A program made the position numbers and the translations under genes. Of a stretch of 64,000 nt of DNA, positions 3,922 to 56,395 are shown piece by piece. How positions within the stretch are numbered: the first letter of the stretch is position 1; the number at the start of each line of letters is the position of its first letter. Below the pieces are notes generated by a model. That model was not told the DNA's origin, made no database searches, and was given only the letters and a program-made list of their open reading frames with translations. Location: assembly GCF_964355755.1 (NCBI RefSeq), contig NC_092671.1:23138070-23202069 (forward strand), written 5' to 3'. This stretch comes from Antedon mediterranea (lineage: Eukaryota > Animalia > Echinodermata).

Positions 3922-6472
3922 CAGGCCCGTAGCCAGGGGGGTTTTTGGGGTTCGGGCGAACCCCCCCCCCCCCCTTGAAAAACAAAGGCCCCACTTCCAA
4001 AATCGTGCAATTAATTATCAATTATATCAGATTTTTTAGTCATTTTACTTCTATTGACTATGTTTAAATCGATCGAATATACAGATTGTCCGATGTCAAA
4101 GTCACTGCTGAGCGTGAGATCGAGAGATTGTTGAGAGATGATGGTTATAAATATGACAGAAAAATGGACTGACCAATCGCGTGCTTCGGCCGGGCTTTTC
4201 GGAACGCACAAGATCACGTTCAGTTCAGTTCAATCTTTTTGGGGATTTTTATTTTTTTCCTGGAAATATTTTTCATTAAACCAAAGAATTTCACTGTGTA
4301 AACTTGAATAAAAATGGTGCTGAGTTAAATTGGTACGTGTACGTAGGCCTACTGTATATTTCGGTGTATAAGACGCACTTTTGACACGCAAAATTGACCT
4401 CTAAATGTTACCCTAATTAATTTAATTACCTAATAATATTTAAATTAATTAAAAATAGTGTACTACTCTGCAATGTAGGCCTAGCTAGTTACTCACTCCT
4501 GTCTAACCACAGTGTGGTAACAAGTTTATTGAATTTTTAGTTAAGGTAAATTGTCATCCTCGACTGTATTAATTAATATTACAGTACGCATTAGATATTC
4601 TACCCAGGCCTAGTAATACTCTCTGAACTCACGGGTGTGTATTCTAGCAGCATGCAACATCACAGCGCAACACATTTATGGAAGAGGCCATTAATTACGG
4701 TGGTGTCACATTTTAATTACACAATAACTATTTCCCTTGATCACATCTCTATGTCAACAATCACATAATTTTATAATCATGTAGGCAATAGTTTGTATGT
4801 CAAGCGATATCTAAAAGAGTGTGTTGTTATTGTGTTAAGTAGCTTCCCCTAATCTCATAGGTCGTGTTCGTACGGTGGTTAAAATAAGCGCTTAATTTCA
4901 CCCATGTCTCGGGTTATAAATTGAGCGTTGTTCGTACTTGAAATATTTAACCGCTTAAATGCTTAATCGACGAATCACAAACCGGAAATTACGTTTTAAG
5001 GTCAGTTGTCTTTACAACCTACGACCCCATTTTCGCACGCTAGTTTCGTGTTGTATGTTTTTCACTCGCGATCTTTCTTTACAATAACAATTACTTGCTA
5101 CCTTTTACACTGCTTATCCTTGCGACAAACCTTATGCCTCTTAACGCCGATAATCCTGCCCAAATATTCCTTCTCCTGACGACCATTATTTTACTCATTG
5201 ACGAAGAATTTGAGCCCAATGTTACACGACGGAAACACCACCGACCAGCTAGGCCTACTAACTAAGCGGTCTACACCAACAAGGACAGCACCAGCTGACG
5301 ATCGCTCTCGAAGCGTGTATGGAAGAGCTTCGTAGGAGAAATGACGGGTCTAGGCAGCGAACGTTTGTCAAAATTTGACACATTGCCTCTATCGGAGATT
5401 TATTATCCTCGAAGGCCGAGTATAATTGGATTATCGCTGAAATAACCTGCAAATTTGGTAAACATTTTGCCTCGAATTTTTTGTAGCCTGAGGCAAAAGT
5501 TAATTGGATCACGCGAACGGAAATCGGGAATAAGCTGGTATTTTCAACCCCTACGAACAGGCCCATAGTGTATATGGCCAACAGTGCTGGCCACCAGGCA
5601 AGGAGCACATGGTTAGTGCTCTCCTCTCCTCATATTGCTGTAATGCATGCATGGAAATAGGAAAGATTTTCATATAGGCCTACCCAACATGATATTCCTG
5701 GTTCATTATCAGCCCAAAAAAACTGAACATCATTTGGATTGATTTTATAATGGTCATACACACAATAAGAAGGTATATATTTAAATAATATGAAATTAAA
5801 GTTACTTAAATAGACATAGGCTAGCCATACCCACACAGTGCATCGTAACTGAAACAATATGGGGATTTCCCTTTTCAGTTCAGTTGAAGTAGAGACTGAT
5901 TACGATGTAATAAAGGCAATCAAACAAAATTATATCATTTGATTCTAATAAATATGTCTCAAATATCGTTGTTTTATTATTAAAATACCATTGTTTTGAT
6001 TGTAAAATGTTTAAATTTCGGCCTAGAAATAAGTGCGTCTTATGCATCGACTACATAAAAAATACTAATATTTCAGTCTCCGTTTTATGGGTGCGCCTTA
6101 TACACAGGTGCGACTTGTACACCGAAATATACGGTACTATTTGTTTTTTATGTTTATAGGATAAGAAATTATTTAAGGGCCTAATATAATATACTTTTTT
6201 GCAACAATAAAGCTGTATTTCATGATCAGTACTACTAACTTCCATAATACTGTACTATATAATTTCTCTGCATAACTCAGATTCTAGTAGGTAAAAAATG
6301 TCTCTGTAAGCTTATTAAAACAACCGAAATTGCTCTGAGAGCCAAAGCTTCCAGGGGCCTTCGCCCCCTGGACCCCGACCCCTTGGCCCCCCAGCCTACA
6401 GTTGCTCGCTGCGCTCGCTAAATACTTGGTGTCAAGAAAATCCCCCTCTGATGCATTCTGGCTACGGGCCTG
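3922..6472. mobile_element. Non-autonomous hAT-like element with 6-bp TSD
   Basis: 15-bp TIR CAGGCCCGTAGCCAG at 3922 and its reverse complement ending at 6472. TATTCC flanks both ends (3916-3921, 6473-6478). Confidence 0.8.
4352..6134. mobile_element. Non-autonomous Tc1/mariner (pogo/Tc2-like) element nested in the hAT-like element
   Basis: TA at both flanks. TIRs CTGTATATTTCGGTGTATAAGACGCAC and CCGTATATTTCGGTGTACAAGTCGCAC match 24/27. Confidence 0.75.
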
Positions 6473-7593: not shown

Positions 7594-10500
7594 TAGTTAT
7601 CCGCTTAGTAGCGGATAACTCCTTGTGATTGTAGTGGATCATTTTTTTTTTTTTTTTCCTGTATTATTCTTATTTCTTTCCCGTTTTTTCAAAATGTGTA
7701 AACATAACATTTCATGACTTTGACAACATGTGGGCATTTACGTGAAGTTGTGCACCTCCTATTTTGAATGACGTCAGAGTTGCGCAACGTGACTTACGCG
7801 CGATTTTATGATTTTTAATGATTGATCATAGCTTAAAAACCAAGCGTAATTTTTTTTTTACCCTTTATGAAAATTTAAGTCAAATAAAGCTCAAACTTTT
7901 AGTGCACTAAAAATGGCATGTTTTACAAAAAGTTACGCGCACACGCACATTTAAAATTTAAAATTGCAAAAAAACAATTTCTAATAAACTTTCTACGCGT
8001 TTCATGTCATTTTAAGCATGTCAAAAATTCCCATGCGCGTGCAAAGAGTTAAAAAAATCATTTTTTCAAGCCTTTTCTAGTAATTTTACCAACTTTTAAA
8101 CAATTTCGACTTAAAGTTACGTCATACGAGCACGTCGAATTGGACAATTTGCGCACGTTTTTGATGAAAAAGTACAAAAATTTGTCAAAATTATGCCTTT
8201 TTTTAAACAGTCGTAATTTCTAAACTACACGGTCAACTTTTTGTGAATGACATATTCCGGAAGTTGATGAGTTGTAGATATCGGATCATGTATTAATATG
8301 GCAAACCGGACATTTTAACGTCATCGTATAGCCACGCGAATATAAAATTGAGGATTTTTGTATCTTTCGTCATAGCTCATCACATTTAATAGAGCGCATC
8401 TCCACTTATCCATTTTCCATTTTCACCCCGATTTTGATATTGTCTAGGTCAATCAACTATCTTTCGCATGAGTTAAAAATATTTTAATTATTATGACGTC
8501 ATCATGCCTAAAAATCTAAATTACATGTGGCATTAATTTCATCTTTACAGAAAATTTTAATCTGTTATAGCTCGTAAGAATAAAATGTGATAATCACGAT
8601 TAAAACGTTTTCTGGAAGCTATTGGATTGTAGATACAAAATCATGTAAAAATTTGGCAAATCGGATGTTGTGACGTCATCATATGGCCAGTTAAATAAAA
8701 AAAGTCGTATTTTCATATTTTGCGTCATAGTTCATTACATTTAAAAGAGCGCGCATTAATATTTTACGTATTAAAATTTCTTCTACACGTTAATATGTTG
8801 TTGCTGAGATAAATTCTTTCCGAAATTGCTATATCAGTGTTTCATTTTCATACCGTCACCATGTTAAAAATTGGAATAAATGACGGGACCCGTAATTTCG
8901 CCTATCCTACACTGTATTAATATGTATACAGATTATACTATGTATACTGTAGATAGTATATGACACAAAATATACAGCATTTAGCACTAACAACATATTA
9001 TACTCTTCAGTTCATGTCAATATGCCATAATCTTTTTATGTGTCCAATGTATGACGTGCATGTGGCGTTTGTCGTGCGGATAACTAACTCGTCAAAGTGA
9101 CGAGTTTCATGTCTAGTTTTTTTTCTGTATTCTTCTTTCTTTCTGTCATTTTTGTGTCTCGCGTGAGATAAAAATATTTTAATTTTTTTGACGTCATCAT
9201 GCCTAAAAATTTAAATCACGTGTGGCATCAATTTCATCTTTACAGTAAATTTTAATCTGTTATAGCTCGTAAGAATAAAATGTGATAATCACGATTAAAA
9301 CTTTTTCTGGAAGCTATTCGATTGTAGATACGAAATTATGTAAAAATGTTGCCAATCGGATGTTGTGACGTCATCATATGGCCAGTTAAATAAAAAAGGT
9401 CGTATTTTCATCTTTTGCGTCATAATTCATAACATTTAAAAGAGCGCGCATCAATATTTCACGTATTCAAATTTCTTCTACACGCTAATACGTTGTTGCT
9501 GAGATAATTTCCTTTCGGAATTGCTACCTTCGCGTTTCATTTTAAAACCGTCAACATGTTAAAAATTGCAATAAATAGCGGGTCCCGTAATTTCACCTAT
9601 TCTACACTGTATGTCACTGTATGTGATATGGATACAGATTAGACTGTGTATACTATATATGAATTTAAATAATATAATAAAATTCAGCAATAACAACATA
9701 TCATATTCTTCAGTTCAGGTCATAATGCCAACGTGAACACTTCCTTTTGTCCTCAACCTATCCCCTTATTGTTAATGTTGCACCACTTGCGCGGCGGATA
9801 ACCAAACTCGTCAAAGTGACGAGTTACATGTCTAGTTCTTCTTTCTTTCTCGCTATTTTTGTGTAGAGCGTTTCTCTAAAATGTGTAAACATAACATTTT
9901 ATAACTTTGACAACCTGTGGGCATTTACGTGAAGTTGTGCACCTCCTATTTTTGAATTACGTCAGAGTTGCGCAACGTGACTTACGCGCGATTTTATGAT
10001 TTTTTATGATTGATCATAGATTAAAAACTAAAAGTGATTTTTAATTGACACTTTGTGAAAGTTTAATTTATATCATGCGCTAACTTTCTGTTGGAAAAAA
10101 ATTGCGTGTTTTACAAAAAGTTACGCGTGCACGTGCATTTAAAATTTCAAAATGCGCAAAATTAATTTCTAATCAACTTTCTACGTGTTTCATGTCATTT
10201 TAAGCATGTCAAAAATTCCCACGCGTGCGCAAATTTTTACGTGTGCGGTGCGCACGTAGCATTAAAAACATATTTTTTTTGCTTGATTTATGTTTTTCCA
10301 GCCTTTTTCTAGTAATTTTACCAACTTTTAAACAATTTCGATTTAAAGTTACGTCATACGAGCACGTCGAATTGGACAATTTGCGCGCGTTTTTGATGAA
10401 AAAGTTCAAACATTTGTCAAAATTATGCCTTTTTTTAAACAGTCGTAATTTCTAAACTACACGGTCAACTTTTTGTGGATGACATATTCTGGAAGTTGAT

Positions 10501-10975
10501 GAGTTGTAGATCGGATCATGTATTAATATGGCTAACCGGACATTGTGACGTCATTGTATTAGGCATGTTTAGGCATGACGTCGTCAAAAAAATTAAAATA
10601 TTTTTATTTCATGCGAAAGATAGTTGATTGATTGATTATTTGATGCTCAACATTAAAATAACAAACAGACAAAAGACAAAATAACGAGCATCAGGAACAC
10701 CCATTAGGCCAGAAAAACCAGCCCATTTCCAATGGGGTCCAAATTGCACATAACAAGAAAAATACAACATTTATACAAAATATATATATATATATATATA
10801 CATTAAAATAAAGCCCATTAAAACAGACAAATTAAAAGAGAAAGCAAACAAGCAATGAGAAAAATTGCACGTTATCAAGACCATTATTGACCATTGATTG
10901 ACCTAGACAATATCAAAATCGGGGAGAAAATGGAAAACGGATAAGTGGATATGCGCTCTATTAAATGTGATGCTC
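7594..10975 (+). mobile_element. Head-to-tail array of non-autonomous Helentron/DINE-1-like rolling-circle elements
   Basis: 5' hairpin AGTTATCCGC-ttagta-GCGGATAACT at 7595-7620. The 3' ends carry an inverted subterminal GCGGATAAC, hairpin AACTCGTCA-aag-TGACGAGTT and CTAG into T-runs (ending 9116 and 9835). The third copy is partial, with an inverted segment at about 10560-10975. Confidence 0.7.
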
Positions 10976-16586: not shown

Positions 16587-17860
16587 TTGGTTATCCGCAA
16601 CAAAGTTGCTGGATAACCCTTGTGATTGTACGAAATCATCTTTTTCTTATCTTCTTTCTTTCTTTATCATTTTTGTGTAACGGTTTTCTCTAAAACTTGT
16701 AAACATAACATTTTGTTAACTATCTTAACATATTGTCATTTATGTAACGGCGTCAAGCGAAGCTTTTCATGACATTTACAATTGCGCAAGATGACTTACG
16801 AGCGATTTAACGATTTTCTCGTATTTAACATAGGTCGAAAACCAAATAACATTTCAAATTGACACTTTGCAAAAGTTTAATTTATATCATGCGCTAACTT
16901 TCTGTAGAAAAAAAATTGCGTGTTTTACACAAAGTTAGTCGTGCACACGCATTTAAAATTTCAAAATGGGCAGAATTAATTTCTAATCAACTTTCTACGT
17001 GTTTCATGTCGTTTTAAGCGGTGCGGTGCGCACGTAGCATTAAAAACATATTTTGTTTGCGTGATTTATGTTTTTCCAGCCTTTTCTAGTAATTTTACCA
17101 AGTTTTAAACAATTTCAACTTAAAGTTACATCATACGAGCACATTTTTTGATGAAAAAGTTCAAAAATTCATCAAAATTATTCCTTTTTTTAAACAGTCT
17201 TAATTTCTAAACTAGAAGGTCAACTTTTTTAGATGACATATTCTGGAAGGAAGTTGACGAGTTGTAGATATCGGATCATGTATTAATATGGCTAACCGGC
17301 CATTGTGACGTCATCGTATGGCCACACGAATATAAAATTTAGGATTTTTGTATTTTTCGTCATAGCTCACCACATTTAATAGAGCGCATCTCCACTTATC
17401 CGTATTCCATTTTCACCTCAATTTTGATATTATCTAGGTCAATCAACTATTTTTCGCATGAGTTAAAAATATTTTAATTTTTATGACGTCATCATGCCTA
17501 AAAATTTAAATTACGTGTGGCATTAATTTCATCTTTACAATAAATTTTAATCTGCTCGTACGAAAAAAATGTGATAATATTAAAACGTTTTCTGGAAGCT
17601 ATTGGATTGTAGATACGAAATCATATGAAAATTTTGCCAATCGGATGTTGTGACGTCATCATATGGCCAGTTAAATAAAAAGACGTATTTTCATCTTTTG
17701 CGTCATAATTCATTACATTTAAAAGAGCGTGCATCAATATTTCACGTATTCAAATTTCTTCTACACGTTAATATGTTGTTGCTAAGATAATTTCCTTCCG
17801 AAATTGCAACCTTCACGTTTCATTTTAAAACCGTCAACATGTTAAAAATTGCAATAAATG
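16587..17860 (+). mobile_element. Helentron-like family copy (3'-truncated)
   Basis: Starts with hairpin GGTTATCC...GGATAACC. The body is colinear with the 7594-10560 copies. Confidence 0.7.
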
Positions 17861-18300: not shown

Positions 18301-18475
18301 TATGGGTGTCTAGAAAACTCAGATCTCAGATATATCTGACTTTTCTAGATCTAGAAAACTAAGATATCAATATCTGACTTTTCTAGTTCCAAAATAGAAC
18401 TAGAAAACTCAGATCATCATTTGATTGGTTGGTAGGTCATTTGGATCGTTCCATTATTAATCAGCGGGTAGGTCA

Positions 18476-21400
18476 TTTATTTATTTATTTATTTATTTCG
18501 TTTTCTTTTAGTAGGGTAGCCCTCTCAGTAATAAAATAAAACTGCTCTTCCGAGGGGCCCTACGGCACATTTAAACAAAATTTGAAAACAACTTAAACTA
18601 AACTTAAACTAAAACTTAAACTAAAACTAAACTTCAATGCATGTTCTCATTATTATTATACTTTTATACCATATTTAAATATATTTCACTGGAACCATCC
18701 TAGACCACCGGCAACAATAAATGAATCTTAACAAGTGATTTAAAACGGTTATAATTGTTTTGTTTTCTTAATTCATAAGGTAGGCCATTCCAGAGTGAAC
18801 TTCCATAATAAACAAAACTACGTTTGTATATTTCGAGGTTACATCTGGGCAAATACAACAGATTATTTTCATAGTTTCTGGTTTGAATATTGTGTACACT
18901 ACTAATATATTGCAAACATCACATAAGTATGAAGGTACAGATTCTTGTAAACATCTAAATATTGTACAAATTGTATGATATTCAATTCTTGTCCTAATTG
19001 TTAGCCAACCTAAATCATAATGCATTTGTCTAACAGGAGTTCGAATATCAGCACCTAGTATTAATCGTGCAGCTCTATTTTGTACCCTTTGCAATTTTAA
19101 AATATGGGCGTTTGAACCAGTACCCCAGACTGTTGAACAATAGTCAATATGTGATAAAAATAGAGCATTGTATAATCTTTTAATAATTTTAGGAGATGTA
19201 AAACTTTTCAATCTATAAAATAGATGTAGAATTTTTGATAGTTTTGCACATATAGAATCAATATGTACTTTCCATGAGAGTTGTTCATCAAATGTAAGTC
19301 CCAAATATTTAAACGTTTCAACTTTCTCAATCGGAATGTTATCAAAAATTACTGTTTCATCTGTTGTTTTATTAACACGTGCATGAGTACCAAAAAGCAT
19401 GTATTTGGTTTTATCAATGTTTAGAGTTAATTTATGTTTATCTAACCATTGTTTTACATTTTCCAACTGTTCAGTTAAAACTGTTGTAAGCTCTTCATTT
19501 GATTTACATGCATAAAAAAGCGCAGTGTCGTCTGCATAGAGGACTGTTTTACAAATCCCATCAACACTATCATGTAAGTCATTTATGTATAAAATAAACA
19601 ACAAAGGGCCAAGAATTGAGCCTTGTGGTACCCCATAGTTGACATTTAAAATTTCAGATTTTTTTCCATTAAAATTAACAAATTGTTTGCGATTTTTTAA
19701 ATAATTACTGAACCATGCAAGCTCAGTGTTTATCATTCCAAAGGTGCATAATTTACGTAATAAAATATCGTGGTCTACCGTATCAAACGCCTTTTTTAGG
19801 TCAAGAAAAATTGCTCCAGTTACCAAGCCATTATCAATATTTTTATATATATAATTGCATACATCTATCAGTGTAGTAGAAGTTGAATGTAACGACCTAA
19901 AACCAGATTGATTTTTACATAATAAATTAAACAAATTTATATGATTCATAACTTGATTATGGATGCATCTTTCAAAAACTTTCATAACAATAGGTATAAC
20001 AGATATTGGACGGTAGTTGTTAAGTTCATGTTTACATCCTCCTTTATAAAGCGGAGTAACCTTAGCACATTTCCATTCACTTGGAATAACACCAGATCTT
20101 AATGACCAGTTAAACAAAAAGGCAAGACTTTGAGAAATTTGTGAAGATGCAATTTTAAGTAACCTAGCGGAAATCCCATCAATTCCAGTAGCTTTTCCAA
20201 TTTCTAACTTTTCCAACAAACCTTCAATTTCATTTCCATTAATATCTTTAAAGTTGAAACGTTGTTGAAATTGTGATAACGATTCAACGGTAATATCGTT
20301 TTGGTTGTCATTAAAATGGGATGCAAGTTCATTAGAAATTGAACAAAAATATTTATTAAAATGATTAGCAATATCAGTTGGATTGTTTATTTCATTACCG
20401 TTTACATTGAGAGTTGTTTTAGTTTGTTTCTTTTTATTGGGTAAAAAGTCTTTCATGGTTTTCCATAATGTTTTAGTGTCATTAACATTATCCTTTAATT
20501 TATTATTTATATAGTCGCGTTTTAGTGATTTAGACAAATTATTTAATTTATTTCTTGCCTTTTTGTAAGAATTCCAATCATCTATGTTCTTAGTTTTTTC
20601 GGCTTTTTGTTTTAAATAATCACGGTCACGAGAAAAGGAAACAAATTCGTCTGTAAGCCATGGAATATCAGTATCCTTCCTCCTGACCGTCACCATAGGA
20701 GCATGAATATCACAAATATCAGTAAAAATGTGTTTCCAAATGTCCCAAGCCTCGTCAGCATCCTCGGACGCCTCACAAATACTCCACGGAGCAGATGCAA
20801 GATCAGAAATAAACAAATCTTCGTTAAATTTCCGGAAGGTTCTCGTATGTAAAATACGCGGGGGCAATTTTATTTTGATTTTTTTACGTATTGCATATAT
20901 CAATGAGTGATCGCTAATTCCAATTGGTACAACTCCAGTTTTGCTTATAAAGTCATCCCTATTTGAAAAAATTAAATCAATACAACTACTACTGTTTTCC
21001 GTTACGCGCGTTGGAGTTTTAATATACTGGTTTAATTGGAAAATTTGGTGGAGGGTTTTAATGTTCCGAGAATGCTGTTTATCAAATATATTCCAATTTA
21101 AGTCACCAACAACAATAATCTCTCTTATACTATCTAGTATAAAAGATATTTGATCATGCATTATATCAACAAATCCAGTACACGAATTTGGTGGTCTATA
21201 AACATTACCTATAACGAACGGTTTAGTGTTAACCGGCTTAATTTTTATCCATACCGATTCAATTGTATTTTCACCAAAGTCAATGACATCAAAATCAACA
21301 TTTTCGTTTACATAGATAGCCACCCCACCTCCGTGTCTATTTCTGTCTGTTCTAACTAATAGGTATATCCTGGGATTGCAAGTTCACTATTATGTATATT

Positions 21401-21590
21401 TTGATCTAGCCAGGTTTCACTAATTCCTAAAACATGGAAACGGCATTCCGAAAGTAAACTCCGAACATGGTCCACCTTATTATAGAGACTTCTGACATTT
21501 AAATGACCAATTTTAAAACCCTTTGTACAATCAATCTCGCATAATTTGCATAGTATGCCAAAAGCAGGATAAACAATAGAGTCGTTACGT
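18476..21590 (-). mobile_element. Nearly intact L2/Crack-like LINE ORF2 (APE endonuclease plus RT)
   Basis: 851-aa ORF at 18768-21323 with YRPP, GDLN, SDH, DLKKAFDTV, GVPQGSILGP and YADD. The N-terminus (HLNVRSL, SETWL) lies in another frame to about 21530, and the C-terminus is in ORF 18700-18915. (AAAT)n tail near 18476-18497. Confidence 0.9.
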
Positions 21591-22070
21591 AATTCAGCGT
21601 CGTCTACGTCGTTGTCTAAAAGGCTTCCCGTACGATGAAAAATACTAGAGTATTATTAAAACTGAATACTGTGTACGTTTTCTTACTATTGTAACATGTA
21701 GAAGCGGCCTACGGCTTAAATCATAAAGAAAATACAGTGCATGTTACCGTTAAAATATAGGCTTAAAAATGATACATGTACGAGTTGGTGTGGGTACGAG
21801 TTGGTTGAGGTACGAGTTAGCCAAGTTGGGAATAGGTACGAGTTATTTTGGGTACGAATTGACCACTTCTAGTCTAGTACTGTAAGACCATGCCTACTCT
21901 TCGCGATACATCGCGATAGCGCCCACACGTTGAGCCCTGAATTGAGTTTGCTTAGCTAGACCTAAATGCTAAGCCTACATTTTAAAAGGTGTATACTGTA
22001 TTTCTTTATGATTTAAGTCGTAGGCTGCTACTACAAGTTACAATAATTATTATTATTAGAAGAAAACGTA

Positions 22071-24316
22071 TAGTCAACTCTCCCAATACCGGGATTCACG
22101 GAAAACCGGACTTTTTTGGAGGGCCCAATTTGTCCCTATTCTAAATGTACTGTAATTTATTATGAAAACCGGAATACCCAATTCCGGAATGCGGACAAAT
22201 TATGAAGTACAAAACACGAAAATTAGCGTCTGAAAACCGGACTGACAGTTAAAAAACTTATTTACGAAAACAACGTAACATCGTCGTCGCTGACTCGGAT
22301 TCAATACATTCACAATGTACAAAAGCTTTTAACCATACCCTGACCATGCATGAAGTGCGCGACGTTTCTTCGCGGTACGATCAAATAATGTTGCCATGGA
22401 GCGCTACACTGTGATTGACAGGTCAGTTCATTGTCAACCAGGGGTCCCAAGTCTACCGCTACTCGCGGTAGTCTACCGCTACTCGCGGTAGTCAACCGCT
22501 TTTAGTAGCAATCTACCGCGCTACCGCTATCTCGACGTTTTCTACCGCATTTTGATTTTTTTACCGCATTTTCAAATTTCCCCATATTTTTGGCCAAATT
22601 GATTTACGGTTACACCCAGGCTCAGCCCAGGTCAACAATAATCAATAAATAACTAGACAAAAGTGAGGCAGGATGTTGAAACAATGTCTATTCATGCAGT
22701 CTCCGTGGTCTATTATTGTATTTTTATTTGTATGCACTGCCTTTGTTAAACCGTAACAATAATTTACATTTACATTTTAATGTTATCTTTAATGCCAGTG
22801 TAATTACGTATGGATAAAACAATATAAAACTCAATGTTTTTCATCTGAAATAATATGTTAACTCGCGTAATGTAGCATAAGACGGATTCGGAATAGTTAT
22901 TTCTTATTATTATTTTTTTTTGGGGGGGGGGGGTTAAAATGGTAGCTAGCTAGGGCCTAGTAGAAGCCCTAGGCTAGGCCTGTGCCTAAAAAAAATGAGT
23001 AAATTATATTGGGCAATACTATCATGTGTTTATTGTACATTATGTAATTAAGTTAAATTATTTTATATACTGAATTTTAGTTAAAATACAGTATATATTT
23101 TTTAAATTCTTTGTACTGAGGATGTGTCCATAAAAAAAATAAGAATGTAAAAATACTGATGGATAAACCTATGTAAAAATTAAGCCAACTTATGTGTAAA
23201 TATTGTATATACTGTATATGTAACATATTTAGTTAATTAATTAAGAGACGTAAACGACACGCGTGTTGATTTTCGATTCCCCGCGCGTTGACTTTCGACA
23301 CCCCGACGAATTGAATGTGGTTCACGACAAAATCTCCTGCGAATGGACTTTCCCAAGTTGGGACCTCTGGTCAACCCACGAGGCGGCAATTGCTTTGTTG
23401 CGTATCGAACTGCGGTGGGCTTTTTCACATCGAAGCGCTATGTCTTAATGTCTATTGTTTTTAGCAGGGAGTTGTTAACAACTCCCTGTTTTTTAGCATA
23501 TGAATTGTTTTTTAATAAAGTTCAATTTACATTCCACTTTGTGTCTTTGTTTTGTTTAAATTATTGTTAAATTCACAATTGCAATAGGACTTTAAAAAGG
23601 AATGTTTCACTAAAAATGTGCATCATTATAAATTTGGAAATCATTATGGCAAAACGTAAACGGAATGAACTTGACTTAACTAGAGTTAATAAACTTTGAA
23701 ATGTTACCAATTAATTATTGTGTCATTATTGCTTGGCTCGTTTACCTAATCAATTTTCACCATTGCTATCAAATTACGTCAAAATAAAGGAGCTTAAAAA
23801 ACATGTGGTCTAGGTGTGGGTGTTTTTATTTGATTGTGACACCTCTGCACATGCGCATCAATCAAAGCCCCGCTCTGCTATTTTTATCACCCATGCTGCT
23901 GCTAGCTAGCTCACGATAAACAATAAACATACCAAAATTATGTTCACTGTACGTACGTAGGCCTAGCCTAGGCCTTTTTGCCGCTAAAAACACATTGAGA
24001 AACAATAATTTACTACTGTAACATGTTTTATTGGTACAGTAAATAATGTAACTTTTAAAAAAGGTAAATTGAATTAGCTTAATATTAATAAAGTAGGCCT
24101 AGGCCTATCTGTATTTATTTAATTAAAACTAGCTTGACACAAACATATTCATAGCCTAGGCCTTCCCTACGCTAGACCGTACCGGGCAGCATTCGGACCG
24201 GTGATTCAAAGCATTTTCAGTGACAACGTGATGACTTTAAAAATATGTTTTCAGGAAACCGGACTTTCGAAAAACCTGAAAATATATGCCCGCCCAAGTA
24301 TTGGGAGAGTTGACTG
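22071..24316. mobile_element. Non-autonomous Tc1/pogo (Tigger-like) element
   Basis: TIR (C/T)AGTCAACTCTCCCAATAC at both ends, with TA on both flanks. Confidence 0.7.
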
Positions 24317-24678
24317 TAATACTATGTAGTATTTCAAATATGCTACCCTCTAATAATAATGGAACGATCCATTTGATGATCTGGGTTTTCTAGTTCCATT
24401 TTGGAACTAGAAAACTCAGATATTGATATCTGAGTTTTCCAGATCTAGAAAACTCAGATATGATATCTGAGTTTTCTAGATCTAGAAAAGTCAGATACCT
24501 CAGTTTTCTAGATCTAGAAAAGTCAGATATATCTGAGATCTGAGTTTTCTAGACACCCTTCCACTATCCATTACATATAGTTATTTTTATTTTTACTAGT
24601 ACATGGTAATAAAATCTGAATATCATCTTTTAGATAAAAAATGTAATAGATTTACATAGACACACATATATATGTATA

Positions 24679-29959: not shown

Positions 29960-32890
29960 CTGATTCCATTGACCTTAATAATTGTTCGATTAATTTAATT
30001 TTAATTCAACATGATTACAAAAACATATACTGTATGCTACACATCGATACCAAGATCGTACTAATTAGATGTTTGATTCTTGGGTTATTGGTATTAATGC
30101 TACCCCCTACCCCAAAAATGTCTTTTTATTGTAATTTTGAAGAATAACAAAATTACATGACAATTGATATTAATGCAGTGCAATTTTTTTCATGTTAACA
30201 CACATTTTGTTATTCAATGTCAGTAAACACAAGTAAAACACAATTAAAATGAAAAGTATTTAAAAAATTGGAGATTTGATATTGAAATGTATCTCATTAT
30301 GGCAAATATTTGCAATTTTGCAAAAGGTCAGTGACCTTTTTGACCTCTACTGACCTTAAACATGGTTAATTTTATTAAAATTCTATATGGTTAAAAAACA
30401 CGAATGCTACACAACGACACCAAGATCATACTAATTAGATGTTTGATTCTTGGGTTATTGCTATTAATGTTACACCCTACCCCAAAAAAATGTATTTTTA
30501 TTACAATTTTTAAGAATAAAAAATGATAATTTGTGTATAATGAACTGCAATTTTAATCTTGTTAACATATATTTTCTTATTCAATATGTCAGTAAGCACA
30601 AGTAAAACACAATTAAGATAAAACATATTGAAAATTATAGATACTATGTTGAAATTTATCTATATTTTGGCAAAAATGTGCATTTTTGTAAAAGGTCAAT
30701 GACCTTTTGATCTCTACTGACCCTACTAATAGTCCGATTAATTTTATTTAAATTTTATAAGATTTTAAAAGATGTATGCTACACAATGGTACCAAGATAA
30801 TACTAATTAGGTGTTGGATTCTTGGGTTATTGGGATAATTGTTACCCCCTACCCCAAAAATGTCTTTTTATTGTAATTTTGAAGAATAACAAAATTACTG
30901 ACAATTGGCATTAATGCAGTGCAATTTTTTTCATGTTAACACATATTTTGTTATTCAATATGTCACTAAACACAAGTAAAACACAATTAAAATGAAAAGT
31001 ATTGAAAAAATTGGAGATTTGATATTGAAATGTATCTCATTATAGCAAATATTTGCAATTTTGCAAAAGGTCAGTGACCTTTTTAATAATAAATAATAAA
31101 TGAAGACTTATATAGCGCCGGTATCCTCCACCCATGTGGCGCTCATGGCGCTTTGTGCATTAACAACGTGCGAGAACATCAGCGAATAGCGACGTCTATA
31201 GGTTGGTCTTGAAACTGTTTAGACTAGTTGAGCATTTAACTGTTGCTGGTAAGCTGTTCCATACACTTGCGGCCGCAACGTAAAAAGATCTCTGACCCCA
31301 CTGATTTTTCGCTCTACGCTCTTGAAGAAGGTTTTGTGACAATGATCGTAGGCCTCTGCGGGATGATTCGTAACGATCCACAAGGTCAGATAAATAAGCA
31401 GGAGCACTGTCATTTAGGATCTTGAATACAAACAACGCAAGTTTGTACTTAATACGTTGTTGAACAGGCAACCAATGCAAATCCATCAGGACAGGAGTTA
31501 TGTGAGCGTTTGATTTTGTATAAGTTACAATTCTAGCTGCCATATTTTGCAAGCGCTGCAAACGTTGTATTTGAGATTTTGGTATGCCAAACAACAAGGC
31601 ATTACCAATGTCAATTTTAGAAGTGACAAATGAGTGTACAATCAATTCAGCTGTTTTCTTGTTAAGATTACCGCGAATACGACCAAGGTTCCTAATCGAT
31701 ATGCATGCTGCTTTGGATACAGTTGTTATTTGTGCTTCCATAGTGAGATTACTATCCAGCATGATTCCCAGATTCCGGACCACCGATAAGGGAGCGATGT
31801 TAGAGTTTCCGATTCTGATATGTGTGATGTTGATTTTGGAGATGTTACATTTAGACCCGACGATAATAAACTCTGTCTTTCCATCATTCAACTTTAGGTA
31901 ATTTGTTGTCATCCAATTGCGAACATCTTCTATACAGGCTTCCATCTTACTGATTGCTGCAGCAACATCCCTTTGCACTGGATTTACTGACACATAAATC
32001 TGTGTATCATCTGCATAGAAATGGAAATGTAGACTGTGTTTGCGAATAATGTCACCAAGGGGAAGCGTATAAATGGAAAACTGGCCAGGCCCAATTACTG
32101 ACCCCTGTGGTACACCATATTCCAGGCAAGCTTCATCTGAGAATGCATCATTGATACAGACTAGCTGACGTCTTCCTGTAAGATATGACTGGAACCAGTT
32201 AAGAGCAACACCATTTATGCCAATGCGATTTCTCAGACGGGTTATCAGTCTTTGGTGATCAACTGTATCAAACGCTGCTGACAAATCCAACAACACCAAT
32301 AGCGTTATTTTCCCATCATTCATTCATTTTCCCATCATTATCTCATCATTCATTTTTGACCTCTACTGACCTTAAAAATGGTTCAATTAATTTTATTAAA
32401 ATTCTATATGATTAAAAAACACGAATGCTACACAACGACACCAAGATCATACTAATTAGATGTTTGATTCTTGGGTTATTGCTATTAATGTTACACCCTA
32501 CCCCAAAAAATGTATTTTTATTGCAATTTTTAAGAATAAAAAATGATAATTTGTGTATAATGAACTGCAATTTTAATCTTGTTAACATATATTTTCTTAT
32601 TCAATATGTCAGTAAGCACAAGTAAAACACAATTAAGATAAAACATATTGAAAATTATAGATACTATGTTGAAATTTATCTATATTTTGGCAAAAATGTG
32701 CATTTTTGTAAAAGGTCAATGACTTTTTGACCTCTACTGACCCTACTAATAGTCCGATTAATTTTATTTAAATTTTATAAGATTTTAAAAGATGTATGCT
32801 ACACAATGTTACTAAGATAATACTAATTAGATGTTGGATTCTTGGGTTATTAGGATAAATGTTACCCCCTACCCCAAAAAATTTTTGAAG
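29960..32890. repeat. Tandem repeat of about 370 bp in an alternating A/B arrangement, interrupted by a LINE
   Basis: Anchor ATGCTACACA...CCAAGAT recurs at about 30035, 30404, 30776, 32425 and 32796. Alternate units are more similar to each other than adjacent ones. Confidence 0.85.
31083..32352 (-). mobile_element. 5'-truncated L2-clade LINE
   Basis: Uninterrupted 375-aa ORF 31196-32323 (LDLSAAFDTVDH, GVPQGSVIGP, YADDTQIY, LHWLPV). L2-type 3' end with TTA-rich tail near 31085. Confidence 0.9.
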
Positions 32891-33140
32891 ATAAAACACT
32901 GATGATCATTACAAATGACGCAAGTACATACAATGCATCCCTATATTTTTCTTGTTAACATCGATTTTTTCACTCTATATGTCCGTGGGAAGAAAATGAT
33001 ACCAAAGAAGTTTAACTGTGGGGGAGGGGGAGTGCACGGTAACCCCCCTCCAGCCCATGGACTAATTGTTTTTACATTTTGTTGTTTAAAATACATAAGT
33101 AGTATTAGAGGTACTTCAGACAGAAAATGACCTTGGTGTA

Positions 33141-33545
33141 TTTCCTGATTACGTAATAGTTATGTAACTTCCGCCAGGTGTTTCTAATGAAGGTCGTTCT
33201 TTTCCTGATTACGTAATAGTTATGTAACTTCCGCCAGGTGTTTCTAATGAAGGTCGTTCTTTTCCTGTTATTGTAATAGTTATGTAATTTCCGCCAGGTG
33301 TTTCTAATGAAGGTCGTTCTTTTCCTGTTATTGTATTAGTTATTTAATTTCCGCCAGATGTTTCTAATGAAGGTCGTTCTTTTCCTGTTATTGTAATAAT
33401 TATATAATTTCCGCCAGGTGTTTCTAATGAAAGTCGTTCTTTTCCTGTTATTGTAATAATTATATAATTTCCGCCAGGTGTTTCTAATGAAGGTCGTTCT
33501 TTTCCTGGTTTCGTACTAGTTATGTAATTTCCGCCAGGTGTTTCT
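33141..33545. repeat. 60-bp subterminal tandem array (about 6.7 copies)
   Basis: Unit TTTCCTGATTACGTAATAGTTATGTAACTTCCGCCAGGTGTTTCTAATGAAGGTCGTTCT repeats with an exact 60-bp period. One inverted copy lies in the right TIR. Confidence 0.95.
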
Positions 33546-33714
33546 TTGTCTCTTATTTATTAATTTTTGGCGCGATGTTCTGGTACGTGGTGAGTGACGT
33601 CATTACTTTATTTATGATTTAAGACGGTGAAACAAAGTGAAGCGGTTATTGTTGTACTATTCTCCAGTTGTTTTGTCTATTTTTGCGTAGAGTATCTCTT
33701 TACAGTATTTCATT

Positions 33715-34263
33715 ATGTCTGGAAGTATATATCTTTCGCAAGGGAGTTGTGTAGATATAATAATTAGCGATGATGAGGAGACTGTTGTTGTTCCAGGCAG
33801 TGATATAGATGATCGTTACATGGAGGCCGAAGAGGTTATCCCCGCCGGTATAGATGAAGGAGTCGAGAGGAGTAACAGGCCTACAAGTTGTATATTTACG
33901 TACGTGGACGAGGTGGAGAGAGAATTTTTGTTGAAAATGGAGCGTTTGGTTAAACAATTGTTTGCTGCTCAAGTGTTAGCCAAGTGTTGGGTTTTAAGTA
34001 AAGCGGCTTGTTATGGTTGTGAATTTGACAGGAGCAGTCAAAAAGATCATGATTTCTGTTGTATGAAGTCTCTAGAAGAACAGATTGACTATTTTTATCG
34101 GGAGGTTCTGGATAAGAAGTATGTTTCACCCGATACCGTTTACAACGCACTAAATATGCACGGAGAATATTCATTGCCTCGGTATAGACATTTCGTTTAT
34201 TTTCTTGTCAATACCCTGATTAATTCAGAGACTATTTTTAAGCTGTTGTGCGAGGATATTTAA
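33715..34263 (+). CDS. 182-aa hypothetical protein with acidic N-terminus and CxGC-x5-SQ-x2-H-x2-C putative Zn-binding motif
   Basis: Intact ATG-to-TAA ORF with coding-like composition in an AT-rich background. Motif CYGCEFDRSSQKDHDFCC. It lies inside the Polinton-like element, co-oriented with the next gene. Confidence 0.7.
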   Translation: MSGSIYLSQGSCVDIIISDDEETVVVPGSDIDDRYMEAEEVIPAGIDEGVERSNRPTSCIFTYVDEVEREFLLKMERLVKQLFAAQVLAKCWVLSKAACYGCEFDRSSQKDHDFCCMKSLEEQIDYFYREVLDKKYVSPDTVYNALNMHGEYSLPRYRHFVYFLVNTLINSETIFKLLCEDI

Positions 34264-34423
34264 ATTGTGTTTCGCACGTGTCACGGAAACGATTGACCGG
34301 AAATAACAATCATTATCTTTTTAATTACTGTACTGGGGCTACTTCCCTACTGAGCTGCATATATATCCTGATTCAAGCGTAATCGTTCGTTTCACTCTCT
34401 GTAACTCTCTACAGTCTATAAAC

Positions 34424-36253
34424 ATGAGTTTCAACTGTTTACCTACTCCGAAATTAGCAATTGGTGAGAAAGCCCGTAGGACTATAAAAAGAGTTATGGG
34501 GAGTTCTAATGGTCAAGCTGACGAGTGTAGCTATTTAAAATTACCAACGATGGCTTCTACATCAGCGAATATAATGGATTCTATAAAATCTTTTAACGGT
34601 CAAACAGATGAATGTAAAGGTTTGAGTAAAGCCTCAGGAATGAGCGCCCGAGATTTTGCCGTAATGACCGATGGTGTACCAAAGATTTCCATAACTTCAA
34701 AAAATCGGATTTTCTTGTCTGAAAAACGCCATGTAGTGGCCCAACGATGGGGTGACGATGTTTATGTTTGTCTCAGAGAGTATTACCAAACGGAAAAATA
34801 TGGTGCCTTCAAACCTGGACCTCTAGGTATTAATTTACCCGTTCTGCTGTGGCAAAAACTTTTCAACAATATTGATTTAATTATTCAGGCACTGGAAGAC
34901 TTAGAAAGAGACATTAACATGGTGGAGGCAGTAAGAATCCCACTTTCGGACATAATTCATGTGATAGTTAGTATCTGGAAAGAAGAACAATTTGTGTGTA
35001 TTCACCGCTATTACCAGTCAGAAGAAGGAGGCAAGTTTAAACCCGGTAAAAAAGGTGTAAACCTTCCAAAGAGTCAGTGGTTCAAGATAATTGAAAAACA
35101 CGGTGAAATACAAAAGATGATTGAGGAGGTTGGTAATGATAATGCGGCTACTGTTGACAAAAGCGATAATGGAGGACGTTTATTCAATTCAGAACATCAA
35201 TTGCTACCCCCTGATAAGTTATCGGTGCAAAAGATAATAGGGGAAAATTTAGACTGTGATTACCTTCAACTTCTTGATAAAGGAGCAGCCGATACATTGT
35301 TTAAAAAATGTGAGGAAGAGATTGACTATTTTACCGGAGATCTTGCAAAGGTGAAAGTGTACGGAAAGTGGTTTAATATTCCTAGAAAACAGGTTAGTTC
35401 CATTATGTTTTTATCCGTGGTTTTGTATTAATGACTTGTTAATTACTTGTATATCGTTTCCTTTGTTTTTTCCATAATTTACCGCTGTGTAGCTATAGGT
35501 GTTATTTACTCTTTTTCTGTAAATTATTTTATTTGGGCGTGTTCATTTACATCTCGTCAAATAATAAATGACTTTCTTTGTATGGTTTCCCCCTCTGCAG
35601 GTTTCGTTCGGCGATTCAGGCTTAACTTACAAATATTCAGGCAATACAGTACCAGCTTTACCGTGGCCACCATTCCTGAAAGATCTCCGCGATCTTTTAA
35701 AATCGGTTACAGGACATTACTTCAATTTTGTTTTGGTCAACCGGTAAATATTCTTGTTTATTATTTTATTTATTTATTTTATTTATTGATTAAAAGGGTC
35801 CATCGTTTACCTCTAAAACGAATGAACACTATCAGTATTCATACTGGATGATTTCTGCAATTTGCTAGATAAGATTGTTTTAATGGATAATTGGGTTTTT
35901 TTAGTCTCATCTTAAAATATCTTATTTTCTATTGTATTTTGTCGTTACTCTATAGATATGCTACTGGAAGTGATTACATTGGCGAACACAAAGATGATGA
36001 GAAAGACATGGATCAGTTTAGTCCAATCGCCTCTGTATCATTGGGGCAAACACGTATGTTTAGATTTCGACATGGTGATGCGCGAGGTAAGAGTCCCAAA
36101 AGAATCATTGAGCCAGTAACTGTTGATCTTAAACACGGTACATTATTAATGATGAATTATCCCACTAATGAGTACTGGTACCATTCACTGCCTAAAAATC
36201 AATCCATCAAGCTACCAAGAATAAATCTCACGTTTAGAGATATTAAAAGATGA
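34424..36253 (+). CDS. ALKBH2: Tandem PC4-like ssDNA-binding domains fused to an ALKBH2-like Fe(II)/2-oxoglutarate DNA demethylase (469 aa, 3 exons)
   Basis: Exons 34424-35392, 35601-35743 and 35956-36253 have GT-AG boundaries and join in frame (1410 nt). Two PC4 signatures: LREYY..FKPGPLGINL...W and IHRYY..FKPGKKGVNL..QW. ALKBH2 signatures: YFTGDLAKVKVYGKW..IPRKQ, GDSGLTYKYSG, FNFVLVNRY, GEHKDDE, WYHSLP and RINLTFR. The symbol refers to the C-terminal domain; this is probably not the host orthologue. Confidence 0.9.
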
Positions 36254-39200
36254 GAGAAATGTTACGCAAGCATTACAGTCTTTAATAGTGATTGCAGATC
36301 TCAAGAATATCAACTGTTCATGATCTGTTCTCATTTAGTATAGTAGTACCAGTTGAATTATTTTTGTGATGATATTCCTAAAATGGTTGTATTATTGTAT
36401 TGAAGTTAATTCACTTAGATCTAGGCCTAATTCCATTGATCGTTAATAATCATGTGATTGTTTGTCATTGTGTGAATAATGATTAACTTAACGAATAGTT
36501 TCTTAAAAGTAACTTGTAATGTATTTCTAATTGTTAAATACAATTTTTTATGTTTTTAATAAGTGTGTAAGTTTTTCTTTAAAGCGTTTTAATCGTAATT
36601 TCAAGAGTAATAGGTAGTTGTAACGTTTGAAACGGACTGGTAGATTAAACAAAAAAAACCAAAAAAAAACCCGTTATAATAACACTAATAATAGCACATA
36701 TTTTCGTACATGTATCAATGATTTATCTACATATGTGTGATTAATATTATTACAATAAAGACCATGTACATCTACGATATTTTTACTGTAAGTGGTATTG
36801 TAAATAAAAATTATGAATTCAATCGTGAGAAATGACCGATAGCTGTGTATTATTTTTTATTACTTTTATCATAATTGCAACAACAACAAAAAAAAACTCA
36901 GAGAAATCATAATTATCGAATACAGAAAGACGTTTTGGTTACCAACTGTATTTCTTGACACTTAATACATTTTAACAGAAAACAAGACCTTCAACCGGAG
37001 CCAAAAATGGAAATTTGTTTACGTGCAGGTTATTGCCATTAGATATTCTTAGAACTACTTTGGTTTTTATAAATATTGTCACTTTTTTTCTACACGTTTA
37101 TCTACCGAGATTTTGTTTTCCTTTTTATGAATCTTCCGCTGTTCATAAGCATTATTAATTTTTTATAGGCCTTGTTCTTCGCTTTGCAGGCTAAATCTTA
37201 TAACGGCATAGACCTACATTTTAACGGTTCTTTGTAAATATCCTCTTATTGATTGTTACCTATAGTTCTCTGAATGTTTTAATTTACCGTAGATGATGAA
37301 AAAATCCCTTAATCTAGCACCATTTAAAAAAAAAGGTTCCGCAGTAAATGGTTTATTTTTGGTGGTATTGATGGAATCATCGAGGCATAATATTAGGCTG
37401 AAAAACATGACGTCACTATTTTAAACGGTTTATCATACAAGAACAATTAACCAATCACAAAACTGAGCTACTGATTTGCGTAAATGTTTCTGGAAATGAC
37501 AAATTAAGGAAACACGTACACATTAATAAATATATATTAATTTTTATATAAATAATAGACAAAACAAAAGGAAATACACCAAACAAATCATTTTCGTTAT
37601 GAATTTATAATAACTTTAAATTTTGTCCATCACAGGAGACGCGTTTAGCGTTTTCCAATTGTAAAACAGTTTCGCATTGCGTCGCAACACATGCACATAC
37701 TGCAAGTACCGTACCGTACTGTAACAAGTCTACTGATATGTATTTTGTTGGTCACCACCTCATCATTTTAAAAACCAACTCATTTTATTTGCATTTTATC
37801 TACACCTCATGGTTAAAATGTGTTGTTTTTCATATAGAGTGTGATACTGCTTAAAACGTTAAGAACGACCTTCATTAGAAACACCTGGCGGAAGTTACAT
37901 AACTATTACGTAATCAGGAAATACACCAAGGTCATTTTCTGTCTGAAGTACCTCTTTTACTATTTACATACACCACCACGTGACTTTCTAAAATCCGTGA
38001 ACGCAATGCCGTAACTCTCTCTATATATGGCTCTGATAACAGAGCCATTGAAAGTTAAAATATCTCTGGTAGTGGTACAGTTACACAGTTACACTTACAA
38101 AGGAAAACGGACGTACGCCAATTAAAGAGGCCCAAAAACATTAAATGCATCACATAGGCCTACACACGTGTATAAAGAAATAATATTTGGGGATACACAG
38201 CTATTTAGAGACCCATCCGTAACACCAACACCCTTGTAATATAATAATATTTTTTCGGGCTAGAATAGGTGTACCCCATGAAATCAACGGGTATTTTACA
38301 GAATATTCAAATCACCACCTGAACCGTATAATTGGTATACCTTTTACTGTAGGCCTAGTAACCCTACCACATTGTAGTTCTGTATAACAAAATGATTATA
38401 TTTACTTGTTTATTACAATGATAATATTAATAATATTTCTAATTCGTCAGATAACGGACGGTGTACTGGATGGACCACAAAAAACTGCACACTGTCTTTA
38501 ATTAATAATTCATGATCATTATAATTTAGTTTTGTTGAAGGTTACGGAATCAAATGTAGGCCTACTGTATTTCATTTCTTTTGTTGCTATGGAAAGTTTG
38601 TCTGAAATAAAAGTTGAATTGAATTATTATTGTATTATTTATTTGTTCGAACGTCTGATTCACTCTCAGTTAATACTATAATAAAGGAATAGATATATTT
38701 CGGACTGTCTGATGTACCCCCGTGACAGATTGCAACCCCTAACTTAACTAACGTCGGTATATACCATCGGACTGTCTCTGAATATAGGTAGGCCTACCAA
38801 CCCCCGCGACAGATTGCTGCCCCAAACATAACAGTTAACCATCTATTATAGGGGGTGCAATATATTACGGATTGTCTTTAATATTTGGTACCCCGTGACA
38901 GATTGCACTTTTTTTTGTGTTAATTATTTTAACACTAAACCACAATAGTTCAATTGGTCAGATAAGATGGACACATACCGCATTGTACCTATACCACCAG
39001 GATCTCGAAAACTAAACACTGCCTTCAATCAAATAATGTATATAATAAATATTAAAGATGTATTGTCCCCCAATAACATTACATTACAAATTAATTAAAT
39101 CAGACTTTGAATAGGTTATTTTTTAGTTTTAATCATGTTAATCCCCCTGAAGAATATTTTTTTTCAGGGGGACAATAAATCTTTAATTCTTTGTCCTCTC

Positions 39201-50614: not shown

Positions 50615-56395
<5,781 letters not shown>

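Follow-up and report, generated by a model that had tools for sequence, protein, structure and literature searches.

Introduction

How did two single-stranded-DNA-binding PC4 domains come to be joined to a complete ALKBH2-type demethylase in the crinoid Antedon mediterranea, and what could such a protein do for the DNA that carries it? The gene lies at positions 34424-36253 of the window, by which we mean the whole stretch of 64,000 nucleotides analysed here (contig NC_092671.1, forward strand 23,138,070 to 23,202,069); all positions below refer to this window. Here we examine the gene, the element around it and the family of copies to which it belongs. Taken as a whole, the explanation that we find slightly favoured is that of a multi-copy element derived from a Polinton, whose PC4-ALKBH2 fusion would repair 1meA and 3meC on unwound DNA.

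Element boundaries and contents

The preliminary description placed the gene on a mobile element, and its exact ends could be positioned from terminal inverted repeats (TIRs) and a target-site duplication (TSD). Outside the fusion gene, the element and its immediate borders consist of the following features:

33092-33097, no strand: left TSD TACATA, identical to the hexamer at 37965-37970
33098-33201, + strand: left TIR, 104 bp, starting with 5'-AGTAGT, the Maverick (AGT)2 end motif
33141-33545, no strand: subterminal tandem array, 60-bp unit x 6.8; unit 1 falls within the TIR and has one mirror copy at the right end
33715-34263, + strand: ORF182, intronless, 182 aa, acidic at its N-terminus and containing a CxxC-x5-SQxxH-xx-C motif
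36254-37860, no strand: 3' non-coding part, about 1.6 kb, with AATAAA at 36754 and 36803 and no ORF of at least 100 aa
37861-37964, - strand: right TIR, ending in ACTATT-3', one mismatch from ACTACT
37965-37970, no strand: right TSD TACATA, matching the left hexamer

The element thus measures 4,867 bp (33098-37964), and its 104-bp TIRs lie within a 106-nt inverted repeat pair that is 97% complementary. Twelve candidate end positions were tested and the 6-bp duplication was found solely at 33098/37964, where the chance of such a match is 4.6e-4 per position tested. The excerpted account of Mavericks in PMC8097293 gives them 5'-(AGT)2//(ACT)2-3' or (AG)3//(CT)3 ends, a 6-bp TSD, TIRs of 46-1,447 bp and accessory regions at their ends. 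The Antedon element agrees in its TIRs, which fall within the reported range, in its 6-bp TSD, in the exact left motif and, with one mismatch, in the right motif, and it likewise has a PC4-type gene near one end. These ends, together with the PC4 cargo, bear out the earlier assignment to the protein-primed (Polinton/Maverick) type.

The element differs from Polintons/Mavericks (adintoviruses) in being 4.9 kb long against 12.7-24.6 kb and in its gene content: ORF182 and the fusion gene are all that lies between the TIRs, with no polymerase (pPolB), integrase, ATPase, protease or capsid gene there, and no Polinton core-gene remnant could be recognised by eye in six frames of 36254-37860. It also carries a spliced gene, whereas the intact vertebrate Mavericks covered in that part of PMC8097293 are without introns. 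Because Polinton ends are present and core genes are absent, we read the element as a non-autonomous derivative, and since it encodes no polymerase, any role in replication would require a helper.

Genomic surroundings

The DNA around the element in the window is LINE-rich animal DNA. Just to its left lies a 372-bp tandem repeat (30031-31083 and 32387-32978), which is interrupted by a LINE fragment (31196-32323) and contains a near-identical 300-bp duplication (30481-30780 / 32501-32800). A second TIR element occupies 18304-24558; its arms have internal repeats of 32-38 bp, it is flanked by a near-perfect 9-bp duplication (TTCCTCTAT / TTCCACTAT), and it encloses an 871-aa LINE-type ORF (18768-21383). 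We take this second element to be Mutator-like. Dispersed copies of a further non-coding repeat family, which has inverted repeats inside it, lie at 7762-10972, 16764-17859 and 53143-53982; this family is likely a non-autonomous DNA element.

Structure of the fusion gene

The gene was resolved into the following parts:

34424-35392, + strand: exon 1, encoding the N-terminal region (aa 1-87), PC4 repeats A and B, the linker and the start of the ALKBH2 lid through PRKQ
34685-35131, + strand: tandem PC4 repeats (aa 88-163 and aa 164-236), a predicted single-chain pseudo-dimer resembling adintovirus MOSUB
35165-35182, + strand: probable fusion junction (about codons 248-253), where a DNG motif meets sequence like that preceding the domain in host ALKBH2 (host side judged by eye)
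35393-35600, + strand: intron 1, GT..AG, 208 nt, phase 0, with an acceptor position common to host ALKBH2 gene models
35601-35743, + strand: exon 2, encoding ALKBH2 lid residues Y333, Y335, S336 and N370
35744-35955, + strand: intron 2, GT..AG, 212 nt, phase 2
35956-36253, + strand: exon 3, encoding the catalytic core (H382/D384/H447, R459/R465) and the stop codon

Joined, the exons give 1410 nt and 469 aa with no internal stop, and Pfam recognises PC4 in two stretches (E 1e-20) and 2OG-FeII_Oxy_2 (E 3e-29). The GT-AG introns, the reading frame and the Pfam matches all agree with the preliminary description, which had spliced three exons into a 469-aa protein with two PC4 domains and a complete AlkB domain; the HxD, distal His and RxxxxxR motifs that it reported were found as H382-K-D384, H447 and R459/R465. 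The protein is identical over 469/469 aa (100%) to RefSeq XP_071941482.1 (P0018, Antedon mediterranea, 'uncharacterized protein'), so an annotation pipeline independently arrived at the same splicing; this is a gene model and does not amount to transcript evidence. A listing of the sequencing runs that contain the sequence named no RNA run. In a sequencing run that we guess to be RNA (X5), contigs span the introns and flanks and look like DNA. No splice joint occurs among the 15 of 21 contig joints shown, which says nothing for or against expression.

The AlkB half and its probable host origin

The oxygenase half is an ALKBH2. Its best sequence match in the PDB is human ALKBH2 (E 5e-72, ungapped, residues 267-467), and exon 3 alone matches ALKBH2 at E 7e-34 against E 1e-13 for ALKBH3. 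The catalytic triad, the 2OG arginines, the lid and the ungapped alignment are alike in the fusion, human ABH2 and the crinoid host proteins XP_071945810.1 and XP_071944657.1. We compared 26 human ABH2 positions, mostly taken from the available portion of PMC12295762 with G103 and R248 added. Of these, 20 are the same in the fusion, 3 have conservative replacements (F102Y, F124Y, R172K) and 3 are changed. The Val-aromatic intercalating hairpin (V312-Y313) and the dsDNA loop (R198/G204/K205 of ABH2) are retained.

The three changed positions form the complementary-strand loop RKK(241-243), which reads NQS in the fusion, KPS, SQS and MRA in three crinoid host ALKBH2s, and RKK in Lytechinus. RKK loss as an adaptation of the fusion to ssDNA was thus rejected, as crinoid host copies have lost the loop too. 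Being a crinoid trait that predates the capture, the loss is at most a pre-adaptation, and the ALKBH2 orthology stands.

The donor was likely a crinoid ALKBH2. The AlkB half is 82-84% identical to the two Antedon host ALKBH2 genes, and in a tree set against sea urchins, from which four truncated family models were excluded, all 13 fusion-family AlkB rows fall into a single, moderately supported group (83/99; ultrafast bootstrap 83) inside crinoid ALKBH2 (100/100), separated from the host copies by a stem of 0.11 substitutions per site. Host isoform P0008 is missing the 12 aa that end in PRKQ and continues from the same site as P0024, which is the acceptor position of intron 1. As this acceptor is common to the host genes, the intron was likely inherited and the capture likely took place at the DNA level; a retrocopy origin is ruled out by the introns and the host-shared acceptor. 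The fusion departs from ALKBH2 in having PC4-PC4 where the host N-terminus, which is missing, would stand, and in belonging to a multi-copy family of which this copy lies inside a TIR element. An APIM-like motif is present in the Lytechinus proteins and absent from the crinoid ones.

Beside the fusion family, at least two ALKBH2 genes of host type are present in Antedon (P0006/P0022 and P0008/P0024), and one of them is apparently duplicated, as two neighbouring accessions on one contig. At 36097-36255, short contigs of the P0022 type reach a depth of 4,000-5,500 in run X7, against about 570 for the element-like contig; this order is reversed in runs X1 and X5, and depth is not copy number. In organism B, the P0022-type ALKBH2 paralogue may have been amplified or may be strongly expressed.

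The PC4 half and its relatives

Scanned with HMMER, the PC4 pair has 165 matches, of which the 150 listed comprise 2 members of the family and 148 further proteins. Closest in sequence are unfused proteins of Anneissia japonica and from ENA (20 of the 148 looked up). In a tree of 28 hand-chosen proteins over 73 columns, the fusion's PC4 repeats and the unfused crinoid PC4s share one clade (98/90), with one long unrelated row inside it. Directly after PC4 the unfused crinoid proteins have the DNG motif, at which the fusion turns ALKBH2-like; this flanking motif is common to both, and in some of the unfused proteins the N-terminal stretch is as well.

Structure prediction of the PC4 pair, built from 57 sequences, yields a compact model (pLDDT 94.6, pTM 0.88), in which each repeat superposes on human PC4 with an rmsd of 1.2 over 66 residues and shows the four-strand sheet and kinked helix. 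The top VIA match is Pur-alpha repeats I-II (Z 11.2, rmsd 4.3, 131 aligned residues). In both the Antedon pair and Pur-alpha repeats I-II or type I PC4-like domains, as the latter are treated in part of PMC7549692, two repeats make up one intramolecular unit; the Antedon repeats differ in sharing 7% identity with Pur-alpha, in belonging by sequence to the true PC4/Sub1 family and in being fused to an enzyme. The single compact unit and the Pur-alpha match are in line with the single-chain PC4 pseudo-dimer first proposed for this gene, and we predict such a pseudo-dimer on the strength of the model. A full-length AlphaFold model of the fusion reached a pLDDT of 33 (20 close sequences) and was set aside.

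Among viral structures, the best BFVD match of the pair is MOSUB of a Branchiostoma lancelet adintovirus (E 2.2e-8, TMq 0.80, 22% identity), which covers the whole tandem; a second adintovirus MOSUB stands at rank 32 (E 0.07, TMq 0.59). MOSUB is drawn beside an ITR in Suppl. Fig. S2 of PMC8502044, of which part was available. The fusion, MOSUB (A0A5H3CIS2) and the unfused crinoid PC4s (e.g. Anneissia XP_033117833.1) all have the tandem PC4 fold, but the unfused crinoid proteins have no AlkB and MOSUB, at 203 aa, is too short to hold one as well. Tandem PC4 is found in cellular algal proteins too (green-algal P0029 and P0031, with up to four repeats, one named DEK-C domain-containing) and evidently arose there also, so that tandem PC4 as such is not new. 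Given these algal proteins, and since MOSUB was matched by structure with a sequence identity of 22%, the case for a viral origin of the PC4 pair is carried by fold, context and ends together.

The copy studied here has His194 in repeat B at a near-invariant PC4 Arg, and KPGPLG instead of KPG[KR]KG in repeat A. Judged from these departures from the consensus, its DNA binding may be weakened.

ORF182

The second gene, ORF182, is likely an accessory gene of the element. No Pfam family scored above cutoff, and the homologue search and a tblastn search of phages were blank. It has a weak match (pairwise E 0.004) in the C-terminal portion of P0103, a WW-PC4-PC4 protein from a sea cucumber, and its Cys/His motif occurs in 1 of the 148 non-family PC4 matches among those listed. 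We regard this sequence match as a lead that ORF182 and the PC4 gene might form one accessory module. P0103/P0179 of Apostichopus japonicus combines WW-PC4-PC4 with a CxxC..SQxxH.C domain at its C-terminus that resembles ORF182, and may be an accessory protein of sea-cucumber Polintons. The adintovirus Oncoid is defined, in the part of PMC8502044 available, by LxCxE with a CK2 site and paired CxxC; ORF182 has only LLCED at its C-terminus and a single CxxC, and was rejected as an Oncoid.

Novelty of the architecture

No PC4-AlkB fusion was found outside Antedon in the homologue searches (177-566 aa) or among the listed PC4 matches, none in longer fused forms of 822-2345 aa (a weak search), and the viral_contigs and metagenome_contigs searches were blank. 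The preliminary description had allowed that the architecture might be an already described conserved host gene. The domain-architecture check decides against this, with an AlkB domain in 0 of the 148 non-family PC4 matches among the 150 of 165 listed; host ALKBH2s are without PC4, and the conserved-host-gene reading is accordingly ruled out. A literature search, covering sources other than subscription journals and slide supplements, returned nothing, judged by titles and abstract openings, on Polintons with AlkB, on ALKBH2 in transposable elements or on a PC4-AlkB fusion; where PC4 came up together with Polintons, it was the label of a cluster. The main text of PMC11071296 mentions no AlkB, PC4 or MoSub.

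Polinton ends, MOSUB/PC4 and ALKBH2 are each known. What is likely new is their combination on a multi-copy mini-Polinton, where an element gene is fused in frame with a host repair gene that was captured together with introns. AlkB domains also occur in plant RNA viruses, so both are mobile genomes with AlkB, but the Antedon carrier is of the dsDNA Polinton type. Pack-MULEs and Helitrons are non-autonomous DNA elements that amplify intron-bearing pieces of host genes; in the Antedon case, the ALKBH2 donor belongs to the element's own host and is fused in frame to the element's DNA-binding gene.

Copy family and possible constraint

The initial homologue search (177-566 aa) returned nine proteins, of which the five that match PC4 are all from Antedon and the other four match the ALKBH2 part only. 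A RefSeq cluster look-up extended the family to 17 distinct models on 7 large contigs, some of which may come from a single locus as isoforms. Of the 17, 7 retain the two PC4 repeats together with every catalytic motif, the other 10 being truncated, deleted or starting downstream. There are two subfamilies, of types P0018 and P0021. Contigs from two organisms span the whole element with several variants per position; their depth was not used as copy number.

Divergence between P0018 and P0021 is uneven along the protein, with differences at 5/204 positions in AlkB, 25/149 in PC4 and 30/73 in the N-terminus and linker; the Fisher p values for these contrasts are 2.5e-6 and 1.3e-4. Variants in the N-terminus, PC4 and linker comprise 9 non-synonymous and 2 synonymous changes (among 40 of 390 rows), a ratio that looks neutral for young copies, and those in the AlkB part comprise 6 synonymous and 3 non-synonymous. 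Exon 3 compared with a host-paralogue-like contig shows 16 synonymous changes at 43 sites and 11 non-synonymous at 161 sites, with both lineages pooled. DNA variants of the element type in exon 3 are few (4 synonymous, 3 non-synonymous), so recombination between the subfamilies could explain the uniformity of AlkB. Divergent exon 3 contigs were considered as a second element subfamily and rejected, since most of their amino acid differences match the host paralogue P0022.

Proposed history and function

The anatomy of the element and the origin of element and fusion we hold to be highly probable. A crinoid Polinton would have lost its core by internal deletion and retained a terminal accessory region with ORF182 and PC4-PC4. 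Host ALKBH2 would then have been captured as DNA, introns included and its own N-terminus excluded, and an autonomous helper would have copied the element in trans. In the protein, the PC4 module would stand in for the host N-terminus in targeting DNA, the pair holding unwound or displaced DNA and presenting it to an intact ALKBH2 part, which would remove 1meA and 3meC from it. During strand-displacement replication, displaced strands are exposed. Single-stranded DNA is more prone to 1meA and 3meC than duplex DNA (PMC3413135), and replication is stalled by 3mC (PMC9246332). The fusion might thus have been retained through clearing blocking lesions from displaced strands, to the benefit of element and helper. 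This functional step, the removal of replication-blocking methyl lesions from displaced strands, we infer at about even chances.

Repair targeted to ssDNA had been suggested for this gene before, and the suggestion stands in part: the predicted PC4 pseudo-dimer speaks for it, while the dsDNA preference of ALKBH2 among AlkB homologues (PMC12295762, PMC3413135, both in part) and the RKK loss, which is not specific to the fusion, do not. The further idea that the enzyme offsets damage from host DNA methylation draws on a link with DNMTs that holds in general (PMC9246332), but it finds no local support: the CpG observed/expected ratio is 1.02 for the element and 0.91 for the window. A bolder form of our proposal, in which a satellite Polinton repays its helper in repair and a viral single-chain PC4 with a captured ALKBH2 makes a new, selected ssDNA-directed demethylase, is one about which we are more doubtful than confident.

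The gene could instead be passenger cargo, a host ALKBH2 fragment that a non-autonomous Polinton acquired in frame by chance and then amplified; its protein would be unmade or useless, and its AlkB uniformity would come from one recent version passing between subfamilies by recombination. The DNA-like coverage of introns and flanks in the run guessed as RNA fits this, as do the 10 incomplete models among 17, the few exon 3 DNA variants among element-like contigs, the mostly non-synonymous variants of the PC4 half and the Arg to His change at a conserved PC4 site in this copy. Yet despite the stem of 0.11, neither subfamily has lost the frame, either of the splice junctions or the residues of the catalytic site and pocket, and synonymous variants outnumber non-synonymous ones in the AlkB part; on balance we consider passenger cargo unlikely, although a serious contender.

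A benefit to the host through dosage appears improbable to us. The copies would here add to the general ALKBH2 activity on chromosomal dsDNA, for instance against 3meC made by DNMTs, with PC4 as an anchor to bubbles or transcription sites that gives no aid to replication, and the host would tolerate or select them. The retained V-aromatic hairpin and R198/G204/K205 loop would suit dsDNA work, at least two further host ALKBH2 genes exist (P0022, P0024), and ALKB2 is reported to co-evolve with DNMTs in the part of PMC9246332 available; against this, the near-intact TIRs and perfect TSD of this copy and the many near-identical, dispersed and mostly incomplete members point to recent mobility rather than domestication, and CpG is not depleted. 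Still further down in our estimation, and very improbable, is counter-silencing, in which PC4 would aim the fusion at the element's own DNA or promoters so that 5mC or 6mA is oxidised as an epigenetic mark, and not as damage. An inefficient oxidation of 5mC by ABH2 is reported (PMC10377887) and PC4 is a transcription cofactor (PMC7549692, in part), but the base pocket is the same as in damage-repair ALKBH2 and the CpG content shows no methylation pressure.

Implications

If the repair of methyl lesions on displaced strands is the right reading, the Antedon family would be a clear and recent case of a Polinton-derived element building a new enzyme from its own accessory gene and an intron-bearing host repair gene, with relatives of both parents of the fusion still visible in crinoids. 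PC4/MOSUB would mark the accessory regions of Polintons, a use that has been overlooked. It has been argued from AlkB in RNA viruses that alkylation damage limits replication; whether it limits Polinton replication would become testable, as would whether an added ssDNA-binding module can turn the dsDNA-preferring ALKBH2 into an enzyme of ssDNA or bubbles.
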